Origin: a virus
Taxonomy: Duplodnaviria > Caudoviricetes
Virus record (IMG/VR): IMGVR_UViG_3300020576_005084
Span: 1,184 to 65,183 of that record
Length of the DNA stretch: 64,000 nucleotides
Reading direction: 5' to 3' (one strand)
The position numbers were made by a program, and so were the translations under genes. The notes under the pieces were generated by a model. The model was not told where the DNA came from and did no database searches. It worked only from the letters and a program-made list of their open reading frames with translations. This document shows positions 2,603-21,692 of this stretch, in pieces (position 1 is the first letter of the stretch; every line of letters begins with the position of its first letter).

Positions 2603-3580
2603 CTAGCCAGACTTGAACCCTTCGTTGAAGCTCTCGTCGGCAGTTTTGCGTGTGGGTGGGGGATTGCCGTCGCCTTTCGGCTGCACGGCATCTTCAAAGC
2701 GACCGTTACGGGCCGCGGCTTGCTTGGAAGGAGTCTTCGGCGGAACAGGCTTTTTCTCTTTGGCCTTCTCCGCGGCAGCGAATGCCTTGAACTTCTCGAT
2801 CGCACGGCTGACCACAAGTGGCGAGTCCGTGGTGTTGATCTTTTCCTTGTAGTCGTCAGGCTGTTTCGAAAGCCAAACCCGGAAGGGGTTTGCCTTGTCG
2901 ACAACAGTCTTGCCGTCCACAGTGGTGACACCGACATCCTTGCGCCAGTTGGGGTGCTCTTCCTCGAGCAGCTTCAACTCGCGCCGGGCGACGGAATCAT
3001 CGACGATGGCTTGGATGGCTTCGGGCTTGAGAGCCGTGGCCGCCTTGTCATCACCTTCACCTGCAGGCTTCTCGTCGCCAGTGCCCTTCACGCCCGCGAG
3101 AGTTTTCTCGAGGGCAGAACGGACGCGTGCGCCGATCTCAGGATATTCCTCTTCCAGCTCCTTGAACGCGTCGGCGGGGATTTCCACCTTCAGGCCCTTC
3201 GGAGTGGCGTCCTGCAGATTCTTGACGAGCTGCTGGAGATCGCCGGTCTTGCCGAACAGCTTCTCGATGCGTGCTTCCGCGCCCTCTGCTTTGTCGGCAG
3301 CGGCGAGGAGACGATCGAGCTGGCTCTTCGTCAGTTTGACGACTTCTTCGCCTTCTGGCTTGTCTTCACCTTCGGGTTTGTCCTCGCCTTCGGGCTTGTC
3401 TTCGCCTTCGGGTTTGTCTTCGCCTTCCAGATTTTCTTCGCCAGTGCCGAGCAGGTCTTCGTTCTCGTCTTCACCTTCCGGCCGGGTCAGCGCAGGGCCG
3501 CCCTTATTCGGCATGGTGAAGCCTGCCTCGAAATCGCTCTCGGCATTCTCGTCAGTGTACTTGTCACCTTGTCCAGACAT
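2603..3580 (-). CDS. Capsid scaffolding protein
   Basis: 325 aa, acidic N-terminus, helical/coiled body, Lys/Pro-rich C-terminus; lies between portal and MCP. Confidence 0.7.
   Translation of the reverse strand: MSGQGDKYTDENAESDFEAGFTMPNKGGPALTRPEGEDENEDLLGTGEENLEGEDKPEGEDKPEGEDKPEGEDKPEGEEVVKLTKSQLDRLLAAADKAEGAEARIEKLFGKTGDLQQLVKNLQDATPKGLKVEIPADAFKELEEEYPEIGARVRSALEKTLAGVKGTGDEKPAGEGDDKAATALKPEAIQAIVDDSVARRELKLLEEEHPNWRKDVGVTTVDGKTVVDKANPFRVWLSKQPDDYKEKINTTDSPLVVSRAIEKFKAFAAAEKAKEKKPVPPKTPSKQAAARNGRFEDAVQPKGDGNPPPTRKTADESFNEGFKSG
3356..3427 (-). repeat. Four 18-bp tandem repeats encoding (EGEDKP)x4 in the scaffold
   Basis: Units at 3410-3427, 3392-3409, 3374-3391 and 3356-3373, with synonymous variation. 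Confidence 0.95.
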
Positions 3581-3638
3581 TCTTTTCTCCTATTCGGCCC
3601 GCGTTTCCGTGTGCCGCACCTGTGGTAACGTCTATCGA

Positions 3639-3875
3639 CTATTCGTCGATCGGCGTCGGGTCATCACCAAGACCCAGAAGGTACTTGGCGAATTTGATCT
3701 GACCGCGCAGCGCAGCGGTCTGCGCCTCGGTCAATGTCTCGTCATCGTTCTTGATGCGAAGCTGGGCGAGCTTCTTCTCGACCTCTTCGCTGATCTTGGC
3801 CCACAACGGACCTTTGCGCTCTGCTTGGTTCAGCGCGAACGGGAATTCCAGATCGTCGACAACGCCGTTTCTCAT
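3639..3875 (-). CDS. Small conserved protein between portal and scaffold
   Basis: 78 aa; ATGA overlap with the portal stop codon; helical. Confidence 0.7.
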   Translation of the reverse strand: MRNGVVDDLEFPFALNQAERKGPLWAKISEEVEKKLAQLRIKNDDETLTEAQTAALRGQIKFAKYLLGLGDDPTPIDE

Positions 3876-15346: not shown

Positions 15347-15882
15347 CAAACCAGCGTCACGTTGATCGACAGGTTCTCGCGCCGCTGGTCGTTGTCCTTC
15401 TCGAATCCGCCCAGATGCTTCATGGCCATGTCGATCGCCTGCAGCTTGTTGAAGGGCTGAAAGTCATTGGGCCCCATGTGCGAGATGGCCGCTGCGGTCT
15501 TGGCATCCAGCTCTGTGAAAAGTTTTCGCGTGCCGTCTGGGTGATAGAGCTTGCGGCGATCGAACGTCGCGATCGCGTGGATCTGCGCAAGCATCTCGTC
15601 CATGTCGAGCCCGGCACGACGCAACGATGTGCCTGCGAGCTCGATGATCCGTGCACGGATCGCAGGACGACGCAGCAGGAACGGTGCGTTTGATGGAGCG
15701 TATCCAGCTGCGATCGCAGCTTGCCGAGCATTTCGCTGCAGCTCGACGTACTTTATGCAAAACAATTGCTCGGCAATCGTCAAGGTTGTTACCGGCAAAA
15801 CATTTTGTGACGGCGGGAGAAGCTCCTGTTCAGGAGTTTCGTCACCAAGCAGGTCGGAATTGTCGCGCCGCGAATCAACCAT
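15346..15882 (-). CDS. terS: Terminase small subunit
   Basis: 'EQLFCIKYV...NARQAAIAAGYA......LLRRPAI' HTH and 'K..A.DM..KHLG.F..D', both typical of TerS. Confidence 0.85.
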   Translation of the reverse strand: MVDSRRDNSDLLGDETPEQELLPPSQNVLPVTTLTIAEQLFCIKYVELQRNARQAAIAAGYAPSNAPFLLRRPAIRARIIELAGTSLRRAGLDMDEMLAQIHAIATFDRRKLYHPDGTRKLFTELDAKTAAAISHMGPNDFQPFNKLQAIDMAMKHLGGFEKDNDQRRENLSINVTLV

Positions 15883-15895
15883 GAGTTACGATTTA

Positions 15896-16078
15896 TCAGT
15901 GAAGGGCGATCTCTGTCCAATACAGCTCGCCAATGCGCCACAGGAAACGCTGCTCGATGCCGGTGACCGGGTAGCGCGTGACCACATACACCCAGTCGTC
16001 ACAGTGCAGCTGCACCTCGACCGGGGCATAGGTCGGCAGCGCCGGTAGCACATGCTCCGGGGCCTGCAGGATCGGCAT
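15896..16078 (-). CDS. Hypothetical protein
   Basis: MPILQAP..., 60 aa. Confidence 0.45.
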   Translation of the reverse strand: MPILQAPEHVLPALPTYAPVEVQLHCDDWVYVVTRYPVTGIEQRFLWRIGELYWTEIALH

Positions 16079-16082
16079 GGAA

Positions 16083-16508
16083 TTACTGCTGGGGCTTGTC
16101 TTTGGAATCGGCCTTGAAGCCGTCTTCGAAGCTGGACTGGGCGCCATCATCAGTGCCTCCGGTGGCACCACGCATCAGGTCCAGAATGGCCTTGAGGGCC
16201 TGCCCCTCATTCTCGAACGTCTGGCCTTCGGGCAGGGCGGGTGTGCCGCCCTCGGCCGGGCTGGCACCTTCGGGAGCGGCCAGATCCTCGCCATCCTCGG
16301 GCTCGTCGCCGCTGATGACGGTGTAGCTGCCGTCCTTGTTCAGCATCACCGTGCAGAGCACGGTGGCATCGCTTTCGTCGCCGTCTTCGTTGTCGTCCTG
16401 ATCCTGCGCGCCTTCGCCGTTCATGGTCTCGTTGTCGGTGTCGCCGAGGAGATCAGCGTTGCCGCTGGGAGCGGGCTGCTTGCCCGCGGTACCGTTCAGA
16501 AGTGCCAT
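16083..16508 (-). CDS. Highly acidic hypothetical protein
   Basis: 141 aa, D/E-rich; RBS GGGG/CAGG. Confidence 0.7.
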   Translation of the reverse strand: MALLNGTAGKQPAPSGNADLLGDTDNETMNGEGAQDQDDNEDGDESDATVLCTVMLNKDGSYTVISGDEPEDGEDLAAPEGASPAEGGTPALPEGQTFENEGQALKAILDLMRGATGGTDDGAQSSFEDGFKADSKDKPQQ

Positions 16509-16571
16509 AGCCAGCCCCTGCAGATGAATCAGGAGCTGACTGAAGACACAGATCGGCCATTAACGCAAGGA

Positions 16572-17384
16572 TCAGCCCAGCAGGTCGCTGTTGTCGGGCG
16601 GGGGATCTGCAGCCAGCATCTCGATATCCTCCTGCCTTGCGCTGCTCTTGTACGCCGCCTCATCTTTTTTCAAAGCCTCGTACCGTTCTATAACTTCTGA
16701 GAGAGAAATGTTCGGGCGTGTTTTTCTCAGAAGCAAGCCATAATCTTTAAGCGGGCCTGATCGCAAACCATCAAGAGATTCAGCGATTTCGTTTTTATTT
16801 TTAGACGTGTGCTTTGCCGCCCGTGATTTATTTTCAGCACCAAAAACCCTTGGAGCATTTTCCCACTCCACCGGATCGGGCCAGTCGTGTGTTTCGAGCT
16901 GACCCAACTTTCCCCTGTGGGTCTCGCATGTGCGCGTCATGCCTGTGACCGAGCGCACAAACATGGTGCTGTTGTGCTCGAACAAAACGCCACACACCTT
17001 GCAAGGCGACGACCACACATATCGGCTGCTCTTGCCTTCCCGAGACACCCCCTCGAGCCGAAAGCGTTGACCATCAGGGGTTGTGAATACTTGACCGGGC
17101 AAAAGTTTTTTATCCTCGCCCCGCTGGGCTGTTTCTTCAAAAGCAATCATCATGTGTCGAAGAGATTTTGCAGCGCCGCGCCGGGGCCTCTCAATCGGGT
17201 CATTTTCACGCGCCTGCTCATACACAATGCTGGCTTCACCTGCTGTGAGAAAAGAACCCAGATATCTTTTCTCGCCACGCACCGTGATGGCTGCAGTAAA
17301 TCGATCGATGCGCCTGTCGTAGGTCACACCAACATAGGCCGCAGCTTCTGCGCGTTTCCGCTCGAGTGTTTCGTTGTCTATCAT
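16572..17384 (-). CDS. AP2-domain DNA-binding protein with a putative Zn-binding domain
   Basis: N-terminal 'YVGVTYDRRIDRFTAAITVRGEKRYLGSFLTAGEASIVYEQA' matches AP2; internal CxxC...CxxH; lower GC than the flanks. Confidence 0.7.
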   Translation of the reverse strand: MIDNETLERKRAEAAAYVGVTYDRRIDRFTAAITVRGEKRYLGSFLTAGEASIVYEQARENDPIERPRRGAAKSLRHMMIAFEETAQRGEDKKLLPGQVFTTPDGQRFRLEGVSREGKSSRYVWSSPCKVCGVLFEHNSTMFVRSVTGMTRTCETHRGKLGQLETHDWPDPVEWENAPRVFGAENKSRAAKHTSKNKNEIAESLDGLRSGPLKDYGLLLRKTRPNISLSEVIERYEALKKDEAAYKSSARQEDIEMLAADPPPDNSDLLG

Positions 17385-17689
17385 CAGTGGCAAATCCTTT
17401 TCTTCGGATCTTTCATGTAATAAAAATCGAGCCGCATCTCAGCGTAGCCAAGATCTGTTTCGCCCCAGAGCCAGTCGACATCGAGCAGCGCCTCATAGAT
17501 GGCCGAGGGGCGGGCCCCTTCTTCCATCATGCAATCGATCACGGCATCCTTGGCATTAAGATATTCGCCATGATGTTCCACGTCGGTCAGCGGAGACTCT
17601 GGTATGTCATAGCCCCCTAATGCTTCGAACTCGGCCTGTTGTTCGAGGGTGAGCTGTTCTCTTTCGGCCTGTCTCTTTTTCGATAGCAT
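17384..17689 (-). CDS. Hypothetical protein
   Basis: First gene of the leftward arm; RBS-like GGAG upstream; TGATG overlap with the next gene. Confidence 0.6.
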   Translation of the reverse strand: MLSKKRQAEREQLTLEQQAEFEALGGYDIPESPLTDVEHHGEYLNAKDAVIDCMMEEGARPSAIYEALLDVDWLWGETDLGYAEMRLDFYYMKDPKKRICH

Positions 17690-17735
17690 CACCGGCTCCA
17701 CAACGAATCACTTTCACACTCCAAACCTATATTGT

Positions 17736-17880
17736 ACTCAGCACTGCTGCAAACCATACGCCTCTCCGCTGCGTGGGGTAGACCTAAAGGTCTATACCCC
17801 CATACACAGCAGAGCGGGGTGGAAGAGTAATATTGGGTGCAGAGTAATGAGTGCTGAGTTGATGAGTAGCTTAGAGTATA
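17736..17880. other. Nested imperfect palindrome plus GAGTA repeats at the transcriptional divergence point (candidate origin or packaging site)
   Basis: TGGGGTAGACC-TAAA-GGTCTATACCCCA (17774-17801); outer arms ACTCAGCACT (17736) and AGTGCTGAGT (17850); four [A/T]GAGTA copies at 17824, 17841, 17863 and 17873. Confidence 0.5.
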
Positions 17881-18051
17881 GCTTTACTAAAAGAGCGCAT
17901 TGCTGAAACAACATAAAAACCGTGTTGCCTGCCGCCCGTCTAAGCATGCCGCGCGGCTCGGCCGCCTACCACGACACCGGCCGCCCGAGGCCAGCACCGG
18001 GCCCCGGGCCAGACAGGCAAAAACCCAGCTTTTCGGCCAAAAACAACCCCA

Positions 18052-18081
18052 TTGTATTTCGTAACGATATGCGCATATCAT
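18052..18081 (+). promoter_or_regulatory. Sigma70-type early promoter overlapping the palindromic operator GATATGCGCATATC
   Basis: TTGTAT-N18-TATCAT; perfect 14-bp palindrome at 18066-18079. Confidence 0.65.
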
Positions 18082-18127
18082 GTCCTGCAACCTGTGAGTT
18101 GCAGCAACCAAAGCAAGGACCGACAAG

Positions 18128-18436
18128 ATGAACACTGCAAAGATCGCCAACAACAGCAACGAGCACCCCATCGACCGCCTCGGCGCCGTGCTCGCCCAGA
18201 TCAAGGATCTGGAAGGCATCGCCAACCCGCTGAAGGAAGAGGTCAAGGCCATGGGCCCCGGCCAGCACGACGGCAACCTGTTCATGGCCACCGTCTCCGA
18301 CGTCGACGAGAGCGAGAGCTACGATAGCAAGGACATGGAGAAGAAGCTCCGCGAGATGGGCGTCACTGACAGCTGGTTCCGTCACCACAAGAAGGTCAAG
18401 GCCGGGTACCGCAAGGTGCTGGTCAAATCGCGATAG
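18128..18436 (+). CDS. Early hypothetical protein
   Basis: 102 aa; first rightward gene; its stop codon overlaps the 5' strand of hammerhead 1. Confidence 0.75.
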   Translation: MNTAKIANNSNEHPIDRLGAVLAQIKDLEGIANPLKEEVKAMGPGQHDGNLFMATVSDVDESESYDSKDMEKKLREMGVTDSWFRHHKKVKAGYRKVLVKSR

Positions 18437-18493
18437 GTCGAAACGCCGGGTGGAGGCCCGGCGTATGCCAGTGATGCTGGCACTGACGAGACC
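18436..18493 (+). ncRNA. Hammerhead ribozyme 1, type II (open stem II)
   Basis: GGUC-GAAA-C-GCCGGG-(UGGAGG)-CCCGGC-G-U-A^UGCCAG-(UGAUG)-CUGGCA-CUGACGA-GACC. Complete core (CUGANGA, GAAA, GUA), perfect stems I and III, 4-bp stem II. Predicted cleavage after 18465. Confidence 0.93.
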
Positions 18494-18512
18494 AACCAAG
18501 AAGGAATGACAC

Positions 18513-18866
18513 ATGAAAGTTCGCGACTACTTCGCCGGTATGGCCATGCAGGCCTACATCATAGCTGCGGCGCAGAAGGCCCCGGCAATTACAAACGAAA
18601 ACGAAGAAAGCATAACCGCCGACAACTACGCCCTTGCAGACAGCGCGTACAACATGGCGGCGGCAATGATGCAGTACCGCGAGGACAATCTCGAGGCAGG
18701 GAAAAACTGGTCGCTGACGGTCGAACCAACAAGCGGCGACGATTTTATCGTGCGTGGGGTTACCAACATGGCCATCTACGACATCGGCGAGCGCATCGAG
18801 CGCGGCGTCATAGCTCTTCTGTGTGAAGATGAAGACTGCGAGGTGATTTTCATTTCCACACCGTAA
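18513..18866 (+). CDS. Hypothetical protein of the widespread phage 'RDYFA...AM' family, bracketed by two ribozymes
   Basis: MKVRDYFAGMAMQA...AY.MAAAMM.YR motif plus an acidic C-terminal domain; RBS AAGAAGGA. Confidence 0.75.
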   Translation: MKVRDYFAGMAMQAYIIAAAQKAPAITNENEESITADNYALADSAYNMAAAMMQYREDNLEAGKNWSLTVEPTSGDDFIVRGVTNMAIYDIGERIERGVIALLCEDEDCEVIFISTP

Positions 18867-18868
18867 CA

Positions 18869-18928
18869 GGTCGAAACGACGCCCTGCCCCGGCGCCGTCT
18901 GCCAGTGATGCTGGCACTGATGATGACC
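18869..18928 (+). ncRNA. Hammerhead ribozyme 2, type II, with an extra U between A9 and stem II
   Basis: GGUC-GAAA-C-GACGCC-(CUGCCCC)-GGCGCC-G-U-C^UGCCAG-(UGAUG)-CUGGCA-CUGAUGA-U-GACC. Stem I identical to copy 1; stem III has one A-C mismatch. Predicted cleavage after 18899. Confidence 0.88.
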
Positions 18929-18949
18929 AACCAAGAAGGACAGACCCTG

Positions 18950-19198
18950 ATGACGAAACCCACGCTGGTCCCTGCACCCAAGACTTGGCAGGAGAAGGCC
19001 ACCCTGCTGCAGAACAAAACACTGGAAGCGCTGCACGCTTGGAGCAACGCGCTGGTCGACTACCAGACAACCCCCGGCATGCTGTCGATGAACACCATGG
19101 ACCGCATGGAGACACGCATCGGTCACCTGTGGGCGCAGTACAAGGCCGCTGCGAAAGCGCGCGACACCTTCTTCGACAACCAGACAGGGAAGGCCTGA
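18950..19198 (+). CDS. Hypothetical protein
   Basis: MTKPTLV..., 82 aa; RBS AAGAAGGA immediately after hammerhead 2. Confidence 0.7.
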   Translation: MTKPTLVPAPKTWQEKATLLQNKTLEALHAWSNALVDYQTTPGMLSMNTMDRMETRIGHLWAQYKAAAKARDTFFDNQTGKA

Positions 19199-19201
19199 GC
19201 C

Positions 19202-19558
19202 GTGACCAAGATCGGCGACAAGCTCTGGCGCTACAATCGCGATGCGGACAACCGCATGGGCCGCGATGGCAAGATGATGGATCCGTGGACCGACAGCTAC
19301 AAGATCACGGGCGAGAGCAAGACGCACTGGCTCGTATCGCTGGGACACTACAACGCTAAGGTCAACAAGAAGACGCTGCAGGAGAGCACGCGATCGGGCT
19401 GGGGCAACATACAGTGGTACACCGAGGCGGGCATGACCGAACGCAAGTGGCGCGAAACGCACGCCAAGAAGATTGCTGGCCTCGTTACCGGCCAAGCCAC
19501 CGTCGACCAGTTGAAACAGATCGCCAAGATTGTTGGCTACAAGGAGACCGACCAGTGA
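19202..19558 (+). CDS. Hypothetical protein (beta-barrel-like)
   Basis: 118 aa; GTG start; normal codon usage. Confidence 0.7.
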   Translation: MTKIGDKLWRYNRDADNRMGRDGKMMDPWTDSYKITGESKTHWLVSLGHYNAKVNKKTLQESTRSGWGNIQWYTEAGMTERKWRETHAKKIAGLVTGQATVDQLKQIAKIVGYKETDQ

Positions 19559-19848
19559 GCAACACCGAGAACACCATTATATTCGACGAAGATAGCCTGA
19601 AGAACACGGCCGAGGCGTTGATCGTCGTCAACCCCCGAGGACACAGCGTGTCCGAGGGCATCTACCAGTACATGAAGAACACCGCGCTGCGGCAGCTCGA
19701 CAAAACACCCGACTATGTCGGCTACCTGAGCACGGCCGGGTTCGAGCTTTGCTTCTGGCGCGACGATGACGGCCACATGAACGTGCGCGCGTCCGTCATG
19801 GCCTACACCGTCGTTCGCTTTCTCAAGGAAAAAGGACTGAGCAAATGA
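19555..19848 (+). CDS. Hypothetical protein
   Basis: GTG start overlapping the upstream stop (GTGA); RBS AAGGAG; 97 aa. Confidence 0.65.
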   Translation: MSNTENTIIFDEDSLKNTAEALIVVNPRGHSVSEGIYQYMKNTALRQLDKTPDYVGYLSTAGFELCFWRDDDGHMNVRASVMAYTVVRFLKEKGLSK

Positions 19849-20030
19849 AACAGGAACTGAAAGACAAGATCCTCGCCGTCACGAAGAACAGCAAGTTTGG
19901 TTCGATCCTGCGCTGCGCGCTGAACGTCGAGCGCGATGCGCTGCCGCGCTTCACCGGCAAGGCGATCGTGACCAGCGATGGGTTCGTCATGGCTACCTTC
20001 ATAAGTTCTGACGGCGATCTGGGCGATTAA
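19845..20030 (+). CDS. Hypothetical protein
   Basis: 61 aa; ATGA overlap; RBS AAAGGA. Confidence 0.55.
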   Translation: MKQELKDKILAVTKNSKFGSILRCALNVERDALPRFTGKAIVTSDGFVMATFISSDGDLGD

Positions 20031-20072
20031 AAACAAAAAATCTTGGACCCACATCACAAAGGAAAGCACCTG

Positions 20073-20801
20073 ATGTCTGATACCTCTGATATGTTCCGCC
20101 GCTTCCAGCGGCATCCTGAAGCCCTCGAGCAGGCCGACACGGTCGAGAAGTTCGTCGAGCTGGTCTATGCGGGCCCGGCCAAGGGCCACGCCGATGCCGG
20201 TGTGATCGAGATGTTCGTCAAGCCGTCGAACGCGTGGACCCGCTACGTCTTCCGCACGCTGAAGGCCCACGGCATCGACACGGCGCCGTCCCGGCCGCTG
20301 TATGTGCCCGAGGCGAAGAAGCTGACCGACATTGTCTGGGATGTCCGCTTCCTGCCATGCCCCGAGGGTGGCCAGACGCGCGAGCAGAACCTGCAGCAGG
20401 TGGGCCACAGGCTCTTCCTGAGCGGCCTGCGCAGCAAGGGTGACATCCCGTTCGGCACCATGGGCGGCACGCGCAGCTGGTCTCCCGGCTGGCTCAAGCG
20501 CGGCGAGAAGATCCGCCAGCACAATGGCGGCAAGACCTACGGCTGCTATGCCCGGCCGCAGACCGCTGTGCTGGAAGCGTGGCGCAGCATTGTCGGCGGC
20601 GTGATCGACGCGCTGGAGTTCGTGCGCTGGGACGACGGCCGCACGCTGGTGCTGGCGCGCGGCGAGAAGACGTTCGAGCTCTGGCTGGCGCTGCTGGATC
20701 CCGGCGCGTGTGGTGCTGCCACCCTCATGCCGTTCGAAGACCAGCAGCTGATCGCCGACAACAAGGCCGCTGCGATCGCGGCGTGGGGAGACGACGCATG
20801 A
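20073..20801 (+). CDS. Hypothetical protein
   Basis: Start MSDTSD after RBS AAAGGA; 242 aa; strong codon bias. Confidence 0.75.
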   Translation: MSDTSDMFRRFQRHPEALEQADTVEKFVELVYAGPAKGHADAGVIEMFVKPSNAWTRYVFRTLKAHGIDTAPSRPLYVPEAKKLTDIVWDVRFLPCPEGGQTREQNLQQVGHRLFLSGLRSKGDIPFGTMGGTRSWSPGWLKRGEKIRQHNGGKTYGCYARPQTAVLEAWRSIVGGVIDALEFVRWDDGRTLVLARGEKTFELWLALLDPGACGAATLMPFEDQQLIADNKAAAIAAWGDDA

Positions 20802-20905
20802 GCTGGGAGATCGTCAAGACCCTGATCATCGTCTTCGTGCTGATCGCGATCGGCACGGCGATACCCTACGCCACCCAGTTCGGCATCCGTCTGGTGGTGC
20901 CATGA
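20798..20905 (+). CDS. Small membrane protein (35 aa)
   Basis: MSWEIVKTLIIVFVLIAIGTAIPYATQFGIRLVVP; ATGA overlaps on both sides. Confidence 0.55.
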   Translation: MSWEIVKTLIIVFVLIAIGTAIPYATQFGIRLVVP

Positions 20906-21282
20906 GCCAGCCCAAGACCGAGGTGTATTTCCTCGCCCAGATCCGCGGGAGCAACGGCATAGAGTGGGGCGCGTGGCGCGACATCACCGAGGATCCTGAC
21001 TGGGTGCACAACACGCTGGACGAGGCGCTGGTGCATCTGGAGTGCTACCTGCACTTCACCAAGCATGGTGTGTATCCGGCCGCGTACATGGAGATCCTGC
21101 ACAATAAGGGCAGCCTGCTGGCCATGCTAAACTACGAGAGCGCGAAGATGCAGCGGGAGCACATCATCAAGAACAAGGAGTTCGGCACCAAGACCCAGCT
21201 GCGCATCGTCAAGCGCACACTGGTGATCACCGACGAGGTGGTCGAGGTGCCCGCGACCGTCAGCTACGGAGAAGAGAAGTGA
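20902..21282 (+). CDS. Hypothetical protein
   Basis: 126 aa, coupled to its neighbours. Confidence 0.7.
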   Translation: MSQPKTEVYFLAQIRGSNGIEWGAWRDITEDPDWVHNTLDEALVHLECYLHFTKHGVYPAAYMEILHNKGSLLAMLNYESAKMQREHIIKNKEFGTKTQLRIVKRTLVITDEVVEVPATVSYGEEK

Positions 21283-21692
21283 GTATCGATTGCCCCTACT
21301 GCGGCAAACCCGCCGAGTTCGTCAGCGGCCCCGAGATCTATCCGCACCGCGGCGATCTTGCGTCGAAGCAATACTGGCTGTGCCGGAAGTGCGATGCGTA
21401 TGTTGGGTGCCACCAGAACACGACGACGCCCCTCGGGCGCCTTGCAGATCCGAAGTTGCGCAAGGCCAAGATCGCTGCGCATGCCGCGTTCGATCCCATC
21501 TGGCGAAGCGCGCACGAGAGCAGGCGGCCGAAGGCCCGGCGCGATGCGTACAAGTGGCTGGCCGAAGCTCTGGGCATGCGCCCGGCCGACACGCACATCG
21601 GCATGTTCGACGAGAAGATGTGCATGCGCGTGGTGACGCTGTGCAAGGAGTACGCAGTGAAGAAGCTCGCTGCAGAGATGATGGAGAAGTGA
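21279..21692 (+). CDS. DUF3268-family zinc-finger protein
   Basis: 'CPYCG...YWLC..CDAYVGCH...PLGRLAD..LR..K..AH.AFDPIW...R..AY.WLAE.LG.....THIGMFD...C', the DUF3268 signature. Confidence 0.85.
   Translation: MSIDCPYCGKPAEFVSGPEIYPHRGDLASKQYWLCRKCDAYVGCHQNTTTPLGRLADPKLRKAKIAAHAAFDPIWRSAHESRRPKARRDAYKWLAEALGMRPADTHIGMFDEKMCMRVVTLCKEYAVKKLAAEMMEK

Follow-up and report, generated by a model that had tools for sequence, protein, structure and literature searches.

Two short elements that lie between the first genes of an early phage operon raise the question of whether they are self-cleaving ribozymes and, if so, what becomes of the transcript that carries them; the role of self-cleaving ribozymes in phage genomes is an open question (PMC6765202). 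The elements are found on the + strand of a 64,000-nucleotide stretch of DNA (positions 1,184 to 65,183 of the IMG/VR record IMGVR_UViG_3300020576_005084, a virus of the Caudoviricetes), which was analysed as a whole and is referred to below as the window. It covers nearly all of a virus record of 65,183 bp that has direct terminal repeats and is rated complete. The two elements lie in the gaps between the first three cistrons of the + strand early operon, which we call genes 1, 2 and 3. Their sequence strongly supports the view that they are two type II hammerheads within a co-directional early operon, because of their core, their topology, the covariation across a family of relatives and the scores given by covariance models. 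We propose that these compact, self-cleaving type II hammerheads most likely process the + strand early transcript between its first three genes, and that the transcript is very probably cut at both sites.

The order of elements is the same in both copies and runs from the 3' strand of stem II through GAAA, the stem III hairpin, UH, the stem I hairpin and CUGANGA to the 5' strand of stem II. Hammerhead 1 (18436-18493, + strand) is composed of GGUC (18436-18439), GAAA (18440-18443), a 7-bp stem III with the loop UGGAGG (18444-18463), U16.1 and A17 (18464-18465), a stem I of UGCCAG/CUGGCA with the loop UGAUG (18466-18482), CUGACGA (18483-18489) and GACC (18490-18493), followed by the tail AACCAAGAAGGA (18494-18505). 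Hammerhead 2 (18869-18928, + strand) has GGUC (18869-18872), GAAA (18873-18876), a stem III of seven pairs with one A.C mismatch (18877-18897), U16.1 and C17 (18898-18899), stem I (18900-18916), CUGAUGA (18917-18923), an extra U (18924) between A9 and G10.1, and GACC (18925-18928), again followed by AACCAAGAAGGA (18929-18940). The core, comprising C3, U4, G5, A6, N7, G8 and A9 together with G12, A13 and A14, is complete in both, and in both an A15.1-U16.1 pair is followed by a nucleotide 17 that is not G (H17). Three helices form in each copy, the 4-bp stem II (GGUC/GACC) starting with G10.1-C11.1, and loops close stems I and III and leave stem II open, which is the type II permutation. The cleavage triplets are GUA (18463-18465) in copy 1 and GUC (18897-18899) in copy 2, with predicted cuts at 18465/18466 and 18899/18900. 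The 3' 40 nt are identical between the copies and stem III differs, two of its pairs being flipped from G-C to C-G in addition to the one mismatch. A first-pass annotation of this DNA had described two complete type II hammerheads with these same cuts, a stem III that differs yet stays paired apart from one mismatch in copy 2, and an extra U before stem II of that copy, and on reading the sequence we could confirm every element that it had listed.

The two copies are also placed in the same manner with respect to the genes. The TAG that ends gene 1 (18434-18436) shares its last base with the first G of copy 1, the TAA stop codon of gene 2 (18864-18866) ends 2 nt before copy 2, and the common tail AACCAAGAAGGA consists of a spacer and the Shine-Dalgarno sequence AAGAAGGA of the next gene, which agrees with the earlier description of each ribozyme as starting at a stop codon and ending just before a Shine-Dalgarno sequence. 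For gene 2, the tail and ribosome-binding site (RBS) cover 18494-18512 on the + strand (AACCAAGAAGGA, then 7 nt to the ATG at 18513), and for gene 3 they cover 18929-18949 on the + strand (AACCAAGAAGGA, then the 9 nt CAGACCCUG, 18941-18949, to the ATG at 18950), the distance from AAGAAGGA to the ATG being 7 nt and 9-10 nt, respectively.

Could such motifs arise by chance? The 21-nt word formed by stem I and the core occurs twice, as compared to an expectation of 0 from shuffled sequences. Rfam in gathering mode gave no match in the window, and with an E-value threshold its Hammerhead_II model (RF02276) scored copy 2 at 31.7 bits and copy 1 at 26.6 bits, the gathering cut-off being 37; the two matches had E-values of 1.6e-4 and 3.5e-3 in a 611-nt scan and the alignment covers model positions 1-66. 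The first-pass annotation had named this model as the means of checking its claim, and with it both copies are matched end to end but at scores under the cut-off, which is an operational threshold and not a structural feature.

A family of relatives provides a stronger comparison. Viral contigs were searched with a pattern in which the core and the stem I of the window copies were fixed and stems II and III were free, and this gave 103 contigs. An alignment (A1) of 18 of these, all of equal length and with the window genome excluded, was used to build a covariance model (R1). Every one of the 288 cells of A1 is paired, and covariation is seen in 7 pairs. R1 scores copy 1 at 65.6 bits (E 2e-16) and copy 2 at 56.8 bits (E 7e-14), with the next best match in the 64 kb at E 1.6, and no other ribozyme was found in the whole window, either with Rfam at E up to 1 or in the full R1 scan. 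R1 further retrieved 158 copies in 100 loci, many of them with a different stem I, and among 130 distinct relatives the paired fraction of cells is 98.9% and compensatory changes are displayed by 13 of the 16 pairs, including all six of stem I. The three invariant pairs (A15.1-U16.1, C15.2-G16.2 and C11.1-G10.1) are the ones for which conservation in hammerheads is established. As the search pattern that gave the loci was derived from the window copies, the evidence for the core and stem I is partly circular; stems II and III, the flanks and the copies with another stem I are free of that circularity. Phage hammerheads, which had earlier been put at "a few", number hundreds instead.

The retrieved copies take two forms. 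One has a stem II of 2-3 bp and a loop I of about 10 nt that is paired to the 3' tail, and is the form modelled by Rfam and characterised by Perreault et al. (2011). The other, to which both window copies belong, is compact: loop I has 5 nt, stem II has 4 bp and there is no pseudoknot; in the window, neither the tail AACCAAGAAGGA nor the 5' flank contains a complement of the loop I sequence UGAUG. Most type II hammerheads depend on the pseudoknot for fast cleavage (Perreault et al., 2011; PMC3088659), and the majority of them, though not all, have one of at least 4 bp between loop I and the 3' tail (PMC3088659). No match to the window sequences was found in the text of Perreault et al. (2011).

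What, then, might take the place of the pseudoknot? A broader scan of viral contigs, together with a scanner of our own, gave at least 223 distinct copies of the compact form, and those listed have 113 stem I strands and 20 stem II types. An A directly 5' of stem II (-1) is present in 220 of the 223 listed copies and an A directly 3' of it (+1) in 180. Loop I of the compact form reads U-N-A-N-G, the U being first in 62 of 62 and the G last in 59 of 62, and nucleotide H17 is C in 207 listed copies, A in 15 and U in 1. All of these near-invariant flanking A's and loop I U and G are present in both window copies, where an A adjoins stem II on both sides (18435, 18494, 18868 and 18929). The pattern of conservation suggests that the flanking A's and the loop I U and G may take part in a tertiary contact in place of the pseudoknot. 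Ten other compact copies score between 28.6 and 39.7 bits with the Rfam model, so the compact form straddles the Rfam cut-off. A collection of prokaryote genomes (one genome from each of 185,579 species) yielded a single match to this stem I with a 5-nt loop, in a Clostridia metagenome-assembled genome (L110:2031-2075), as compared to dozens of matches to the same pattern in viral contigs, and for this reason the compact form seems nearly confined to free phage genomes. The survey adds that the compact form is abundant in viral contigs and carries a conserved signature outside the core, which would point to an undescribed replacement for the pseudoknot; the flanking A's and the U...G loop deserve biochemical attention.

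We next consider whether each copy is likely to be active. The minimum-energy fold of copy 1 is the hammerhead secondary structure itself, at -32.7 kcal/mol (z -4.65). The hammerhead fold of copy 2 has -21.4 kcal/mol, and because a competing fold is lower by 1.2 kcal/mol and the z of this copy is only -2.07, copy 2 may be the slower ribozyme by this modelling. It might even be argued that one or both of the motifs, and copy 2 above all, are inactive or very slow relics, given that copy 2 combines an A.C mismatch, an inserted U and this more stable competing fold, that a pseudoknot is absent and that the Rfam scores are below the cut-off. However, the core is intact in both copies, the positions outside the core that are typical of the compact form are kept, GUA triplets recur in 15 of the 223 listed copies and the extra residue between A9 and G10.1 in 6 of the 223. 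In the hammerhead of CChMVd (chrysanthemum chlorotic mottle viroid) an extra residue between A9 and G10.1 is tolerated, and a U there raised the trans-cleavage rate 3-4 fold (PMC3705267). We consider decay to a relic very improbable.

In both predicted 3' products only stem I folds, and the leader and RBS are single-stranded. A bistable ribozyme, in which the 3' tail would mask the core, was also considered and was not seen, the tail being unpaired in both 3' products and copy 1 folding as a hammerhead. As a separate observation, a second GGUC within gene 1 (18394-18397) competes for stem II in the minimum-energy fold of 18380-18560, and this competition is probably thermodynamic noise.

If the ribozymes are active, the early transcript can be followed through the two cuts. 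The operon transcript would start near 18088 and carry both hammerheads, each of which would fold co-transcriptionally and cut after A17 (18465) or C17 (18899), so that the upstream piece would end in a 2',3'-cyclic phosphate and the downstream piece would begin with a 5'-OH. Three RNAs would be expected, namely a gene-1 mRNA with the GC-rich stem III hairpin at its 3' end, a 434-nt gene-2 mRNA (18466-18899) running from a 5'-OH stem I hairpin to a 3' stem III hairpin, and the remainder of the operon from 18900, which would be polycistronic and begin with a 5'-OH stem I hairpin. The first-pass annotation had the transcript cut wholly into monocistronic units, which goes too far, as only genes 1 and 2 would end up on single-gene RNAs and the RNA 3' of copy 2 is polycistronic. 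In the downstream products the stem I hairpin would be followed by about 23 single-stranded nt and the RBS, and in the RNA that begins at 18900 the hairpin would lie 24-25 nt before its RBS.

Neighbouring cistrons would in this manner be uncoupled, each having its own stability and translation rate. It is established that RNA decay can depend on the 5' end and that terminal hairpins are protective. Cleavage in vivo and the uncoupling of the cistrons are likely on analysis of the predicted products, because 5'-OH hairpin ends are poor substrates for 5'-end-dependent RNases, 3' hairpins block exonucleases and a freed single-stranded leader would precede the RBS. The suggestion that the 5'-OH, hairpin-capped mRNAs would resist decay is a reasonable one, which fits the anatomy of the two copies and the position between stop codon and RBS across the family.

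A different fate can be imagined for the 434-nt gene-2 RNA. Its 5' end would carry the 3' half of copy 1 and its 3' end the 5' half of copy 2; together these could form a nicked, chimeric hammerhead, and if the ribozyme itself or an RtcB-type ligase of the host closed the nick the outcome would be an exonuclease-proof circular mRNA. Stem II is identical in both copies, as such a circle would need, and 5'-OH and 2',3'-cyclic phosphate ends are a substrate of RtcB. Among the matches listed, stem II is compatible in 61 of 83 adjacent pairs on the same contig versus 27% between lineages, and the sharing persists in 19 of 25 lineages despite stem I differences at 3 or more of 6 positions. However, of 36 adjacent pairs in which stem II differs, 7 are compatible in the forward direction only and 8 in the reverse direction only, and given this null result of the directional test we attribute the sharing of stem II to descent or to slow change of a 4-bp helix. 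Moreover, a helix of 4 bp is a weak closure for a 360-nt loop, and since only the 4-bp stem II joins the cleavage products they should separate fast, making religation unlikely. Perreault et al. sought circular or spliced products of clustered phage hammerheads and detected none (PMC3088659). Circularisation is, in our judgement, extremely unlikely, and we return to processing of a linear transcript.

Is the position between stop codon and RBS a property of the family? In a sample of 45 compact copies with enough flanking DNA, an open reading frame (ORF) of at least 50 codons ends no more than 25 nt upstream in 42, as compared to 14% at random positions, with its stop codon in most cases overlapping stem II or ending at most 5 nt away. 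A Shine-Dalgarno sequence and start codon follow within 70 nt downstream in 39 of the 45, mostly 14-25 nt after stem II, as compared to 17% at random positions. Among the matches listed, arrays of up to 8 copies in about 4 kb, with one copy per intercistronic gap, occur in many unrelated viral contigs (of the loci numbered L003-L229, for example, L117:476-5082, L126:2225-5493 and L098), and adjacent copies are mostly 220-1000 nt apart and hence bracket single small genes. The 4-bp stem II is usually constant within a contig even when stems I and III have diverged.

The genes that follow compact hammerheads are small (median 100 amino acids) and share no family: 41 PHROG families are represented among 150 proteins, and no one of them accounts for more than 4. 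A few anti-restriction proteins occur among the products, as do an ATPase, an HNH endonuclease and a ligase. It could be held from this that the ribozymes are real and that their main role is to mark the boundaries of movable cassettes, the copies acting as homologies of about 60 nt for the swapping of small accessory genes, with cleavage being secondary or incidental. Such a role would be in keeping with the identity of the two window copies over their 3' 40 nt as against the difference in stem III, and with the composition of gene 2, which has a GC content of 0.55 and a GC content at third codon positions (GC3) of 0.69 compared to 0.82-0.90 in the adjacent early genes, suggesting that it may be a separately acquired cassette. 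It would also be in keeping with a 58.5-kb viral contig (L109), in which an ortholog of gene 1 is present, gene 2 and a hammerhead are both missing, and a homolog of the ORF at 19845-20030 comes next. However, linkers of this type need neither an intact core nor compensatory changes in stems, and both are kept in more than 200 copies; exchange of cassettes explains the distribution of the ribozymes and not the conservation of RNA structure, and it complements processing. As the main role of the ribozymes we therefore regard it as unlikely.

Several observations weigh against processing of the transcript by the two hammerheads. Both copies are below the gathering score of RF02276, and copy 2 is the weaker of the two in its stem III mismatch, its non-minimum fold and its z of -2.07. 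The pseudoknot is absent and the contact that may replace it is deduced solely from conserved positions. In addition, relatives of this phage appear to do without the motifs. Its DNA polymerase is 57% identical in amino acid sequence to those of the Caulobacter phages RW, KcrB, RLK and GB2A, the nearest cultured relatives, of which RW and KcrB have the same genome layout as the window phage; blastn of 18100-19250 against cultured phages found nothing, and the 43 kb examined of phage RW contain no hammerhead. None was found in the three viral contigs with relatives of genes 1 and 2 (L107-L109). In L109 the gene-1 ortholog (58% amino acid identity) is the first gene after a near-consensus promoter of TTGACA, 17 nt and TATTGT, and is followed by one more gene (within 2900-3870) and then by an intrinsic terminator hairpin and U-run near 3830-3868. 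Since RW and L109 are without such motifs, the ribozymes are dispensable for this type of phage. They accompany variable accessory genes and are not a constant component of this phage type, and because the orthologous loci carry no hammerhead, conservation was assessed across the family.

How far is this arrangement already known? The finding and the mechanism of processing are already in the literature in general form, operon-punctuating phage hammerheads having been known since 2011. Type II hammerheads are often found on either side of single genes in prophages (Perreault et al., 2011; PMC3088659), and the processing of long phage transcripts into single-gene mRNAs has been proposed (PMC3088659; also PMC6765202). 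The window copies share with Rfam RF02276 (clan CL00010) the core, the permutation and the habit of flanking single phage genes, and the consensus stem I of that family, ugCCgg/ccGGca, resembles the UGCCAG/CUGGCA of the window, the commonest stem I being held in common. They differ from RF02276 in lacking the pseudoknot between loop I and the tail, in having a loop I of 5 nt and not about 10 and a stem II of 4 bp and not 2-3, in the A conserved on both sides of stem II and in scoring below the cut-off.

A likeness in layout is seen with Desulfovibrio vulgaris, for three type II hammerheads of which cleavage has been shown both in vivo and in vitro (Olzog et al., 2021; PMC8782182). Two of these, the pair loc 2 and loc 3, are 313 nt apart, compared to 433 nt here, and lie among hypothetical and phage-like genes (PMC8782182), but in a phage-like region of a bacterial chromosome, whereas the window pair is in a phage genome. 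Among CChMVd-like type III hammerheads of viroids and satellites, there is likewise a stem I of about 6 bp and a stem II of 4 bp before the interacting elements, and some hammerheads extended by loop-loop contacts also have an extra residue between A9 and G10.1 (PMC3705267). The viroid and satellite type III hammerheads differ in that they have a closed loop II and serve rolling-circle replication, whereas the window copies have open stem II flanks and lie within an mRNA. RiboJ is a synthetic insulator in which the hammerhead of the satellite of tobacco ringspot virus (sTRSV) is placed before an RBS, and is thus engineered and of type III origin. The likeness is that a hammerhead is directly upstream of the RBS and that its cut gives a defined 5'-OH hairpin leader independent of the upstream sequence; the difference is that the window copies are natural, are of type II and would also leave a 3' hairpin on the upstream cistron. 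With one likely promoter, three small genes, two ribozymes and a 434-nt RNA, the locus is a clean, minimal test case, in which, on account of that simplicity, RNA ends, half-lives and protein output can be compared between mutant and wild type.

With respect to the start of the transcript, a 440-nt divergent intergenic region precedes the first + strand gene. A promoter-like, sigma-70-like site on the + strand (18052-18081) consists of TTGTAT, an 18-nt spacer and TATCAT, recognised by eye from its resemblance to the consensus, and is the likely start of the transcript carrying both ribozymes. Within the spacer of this site there is a perfect 14-bp palindrome, GATATGCGCATATC (18066-18079), which looks like an operator. 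The earlier description of the RNA as the first early mRNA is therefore upheld in part, by the promoter match read by eye and by the lack of any + strand terminator-like site within 15500-21500, but a consensus promoter scan lists no + strand promoter at 18052-18081.

The + strand genes span 18128 to about 44000, small ORFs with no assigned function coming first and genes for a primase-helicase, an exonuclease, a DNA polymerase A and a helicase later. Gene 1 (18128-18436, + strand, 102 amino acids, GC3 0.90), gene 2 (18513-18866, + strand, 117 amino acids), which is bracketed by both ribozymes, and gene 3 (18950-19198, + strand, 82 amino acids, GC3 0.82), which is the first gene 3' of hammerhead 2, are all ORFs to which no function is assigned. 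The N-terminus of the gene 2 product matches phrog_2201 (E 2e-6), a PHROG family without known function; a comparison of gene 2 with Pfam gave no match, and its Atlas matches are small viral hypothetical proteins only. Beside the divergent promoter region, a minus-strand ORF of 273 amino acids (16572-17393) has a weak match to an HNH endonuclease (phrog_953, E 1e-6).

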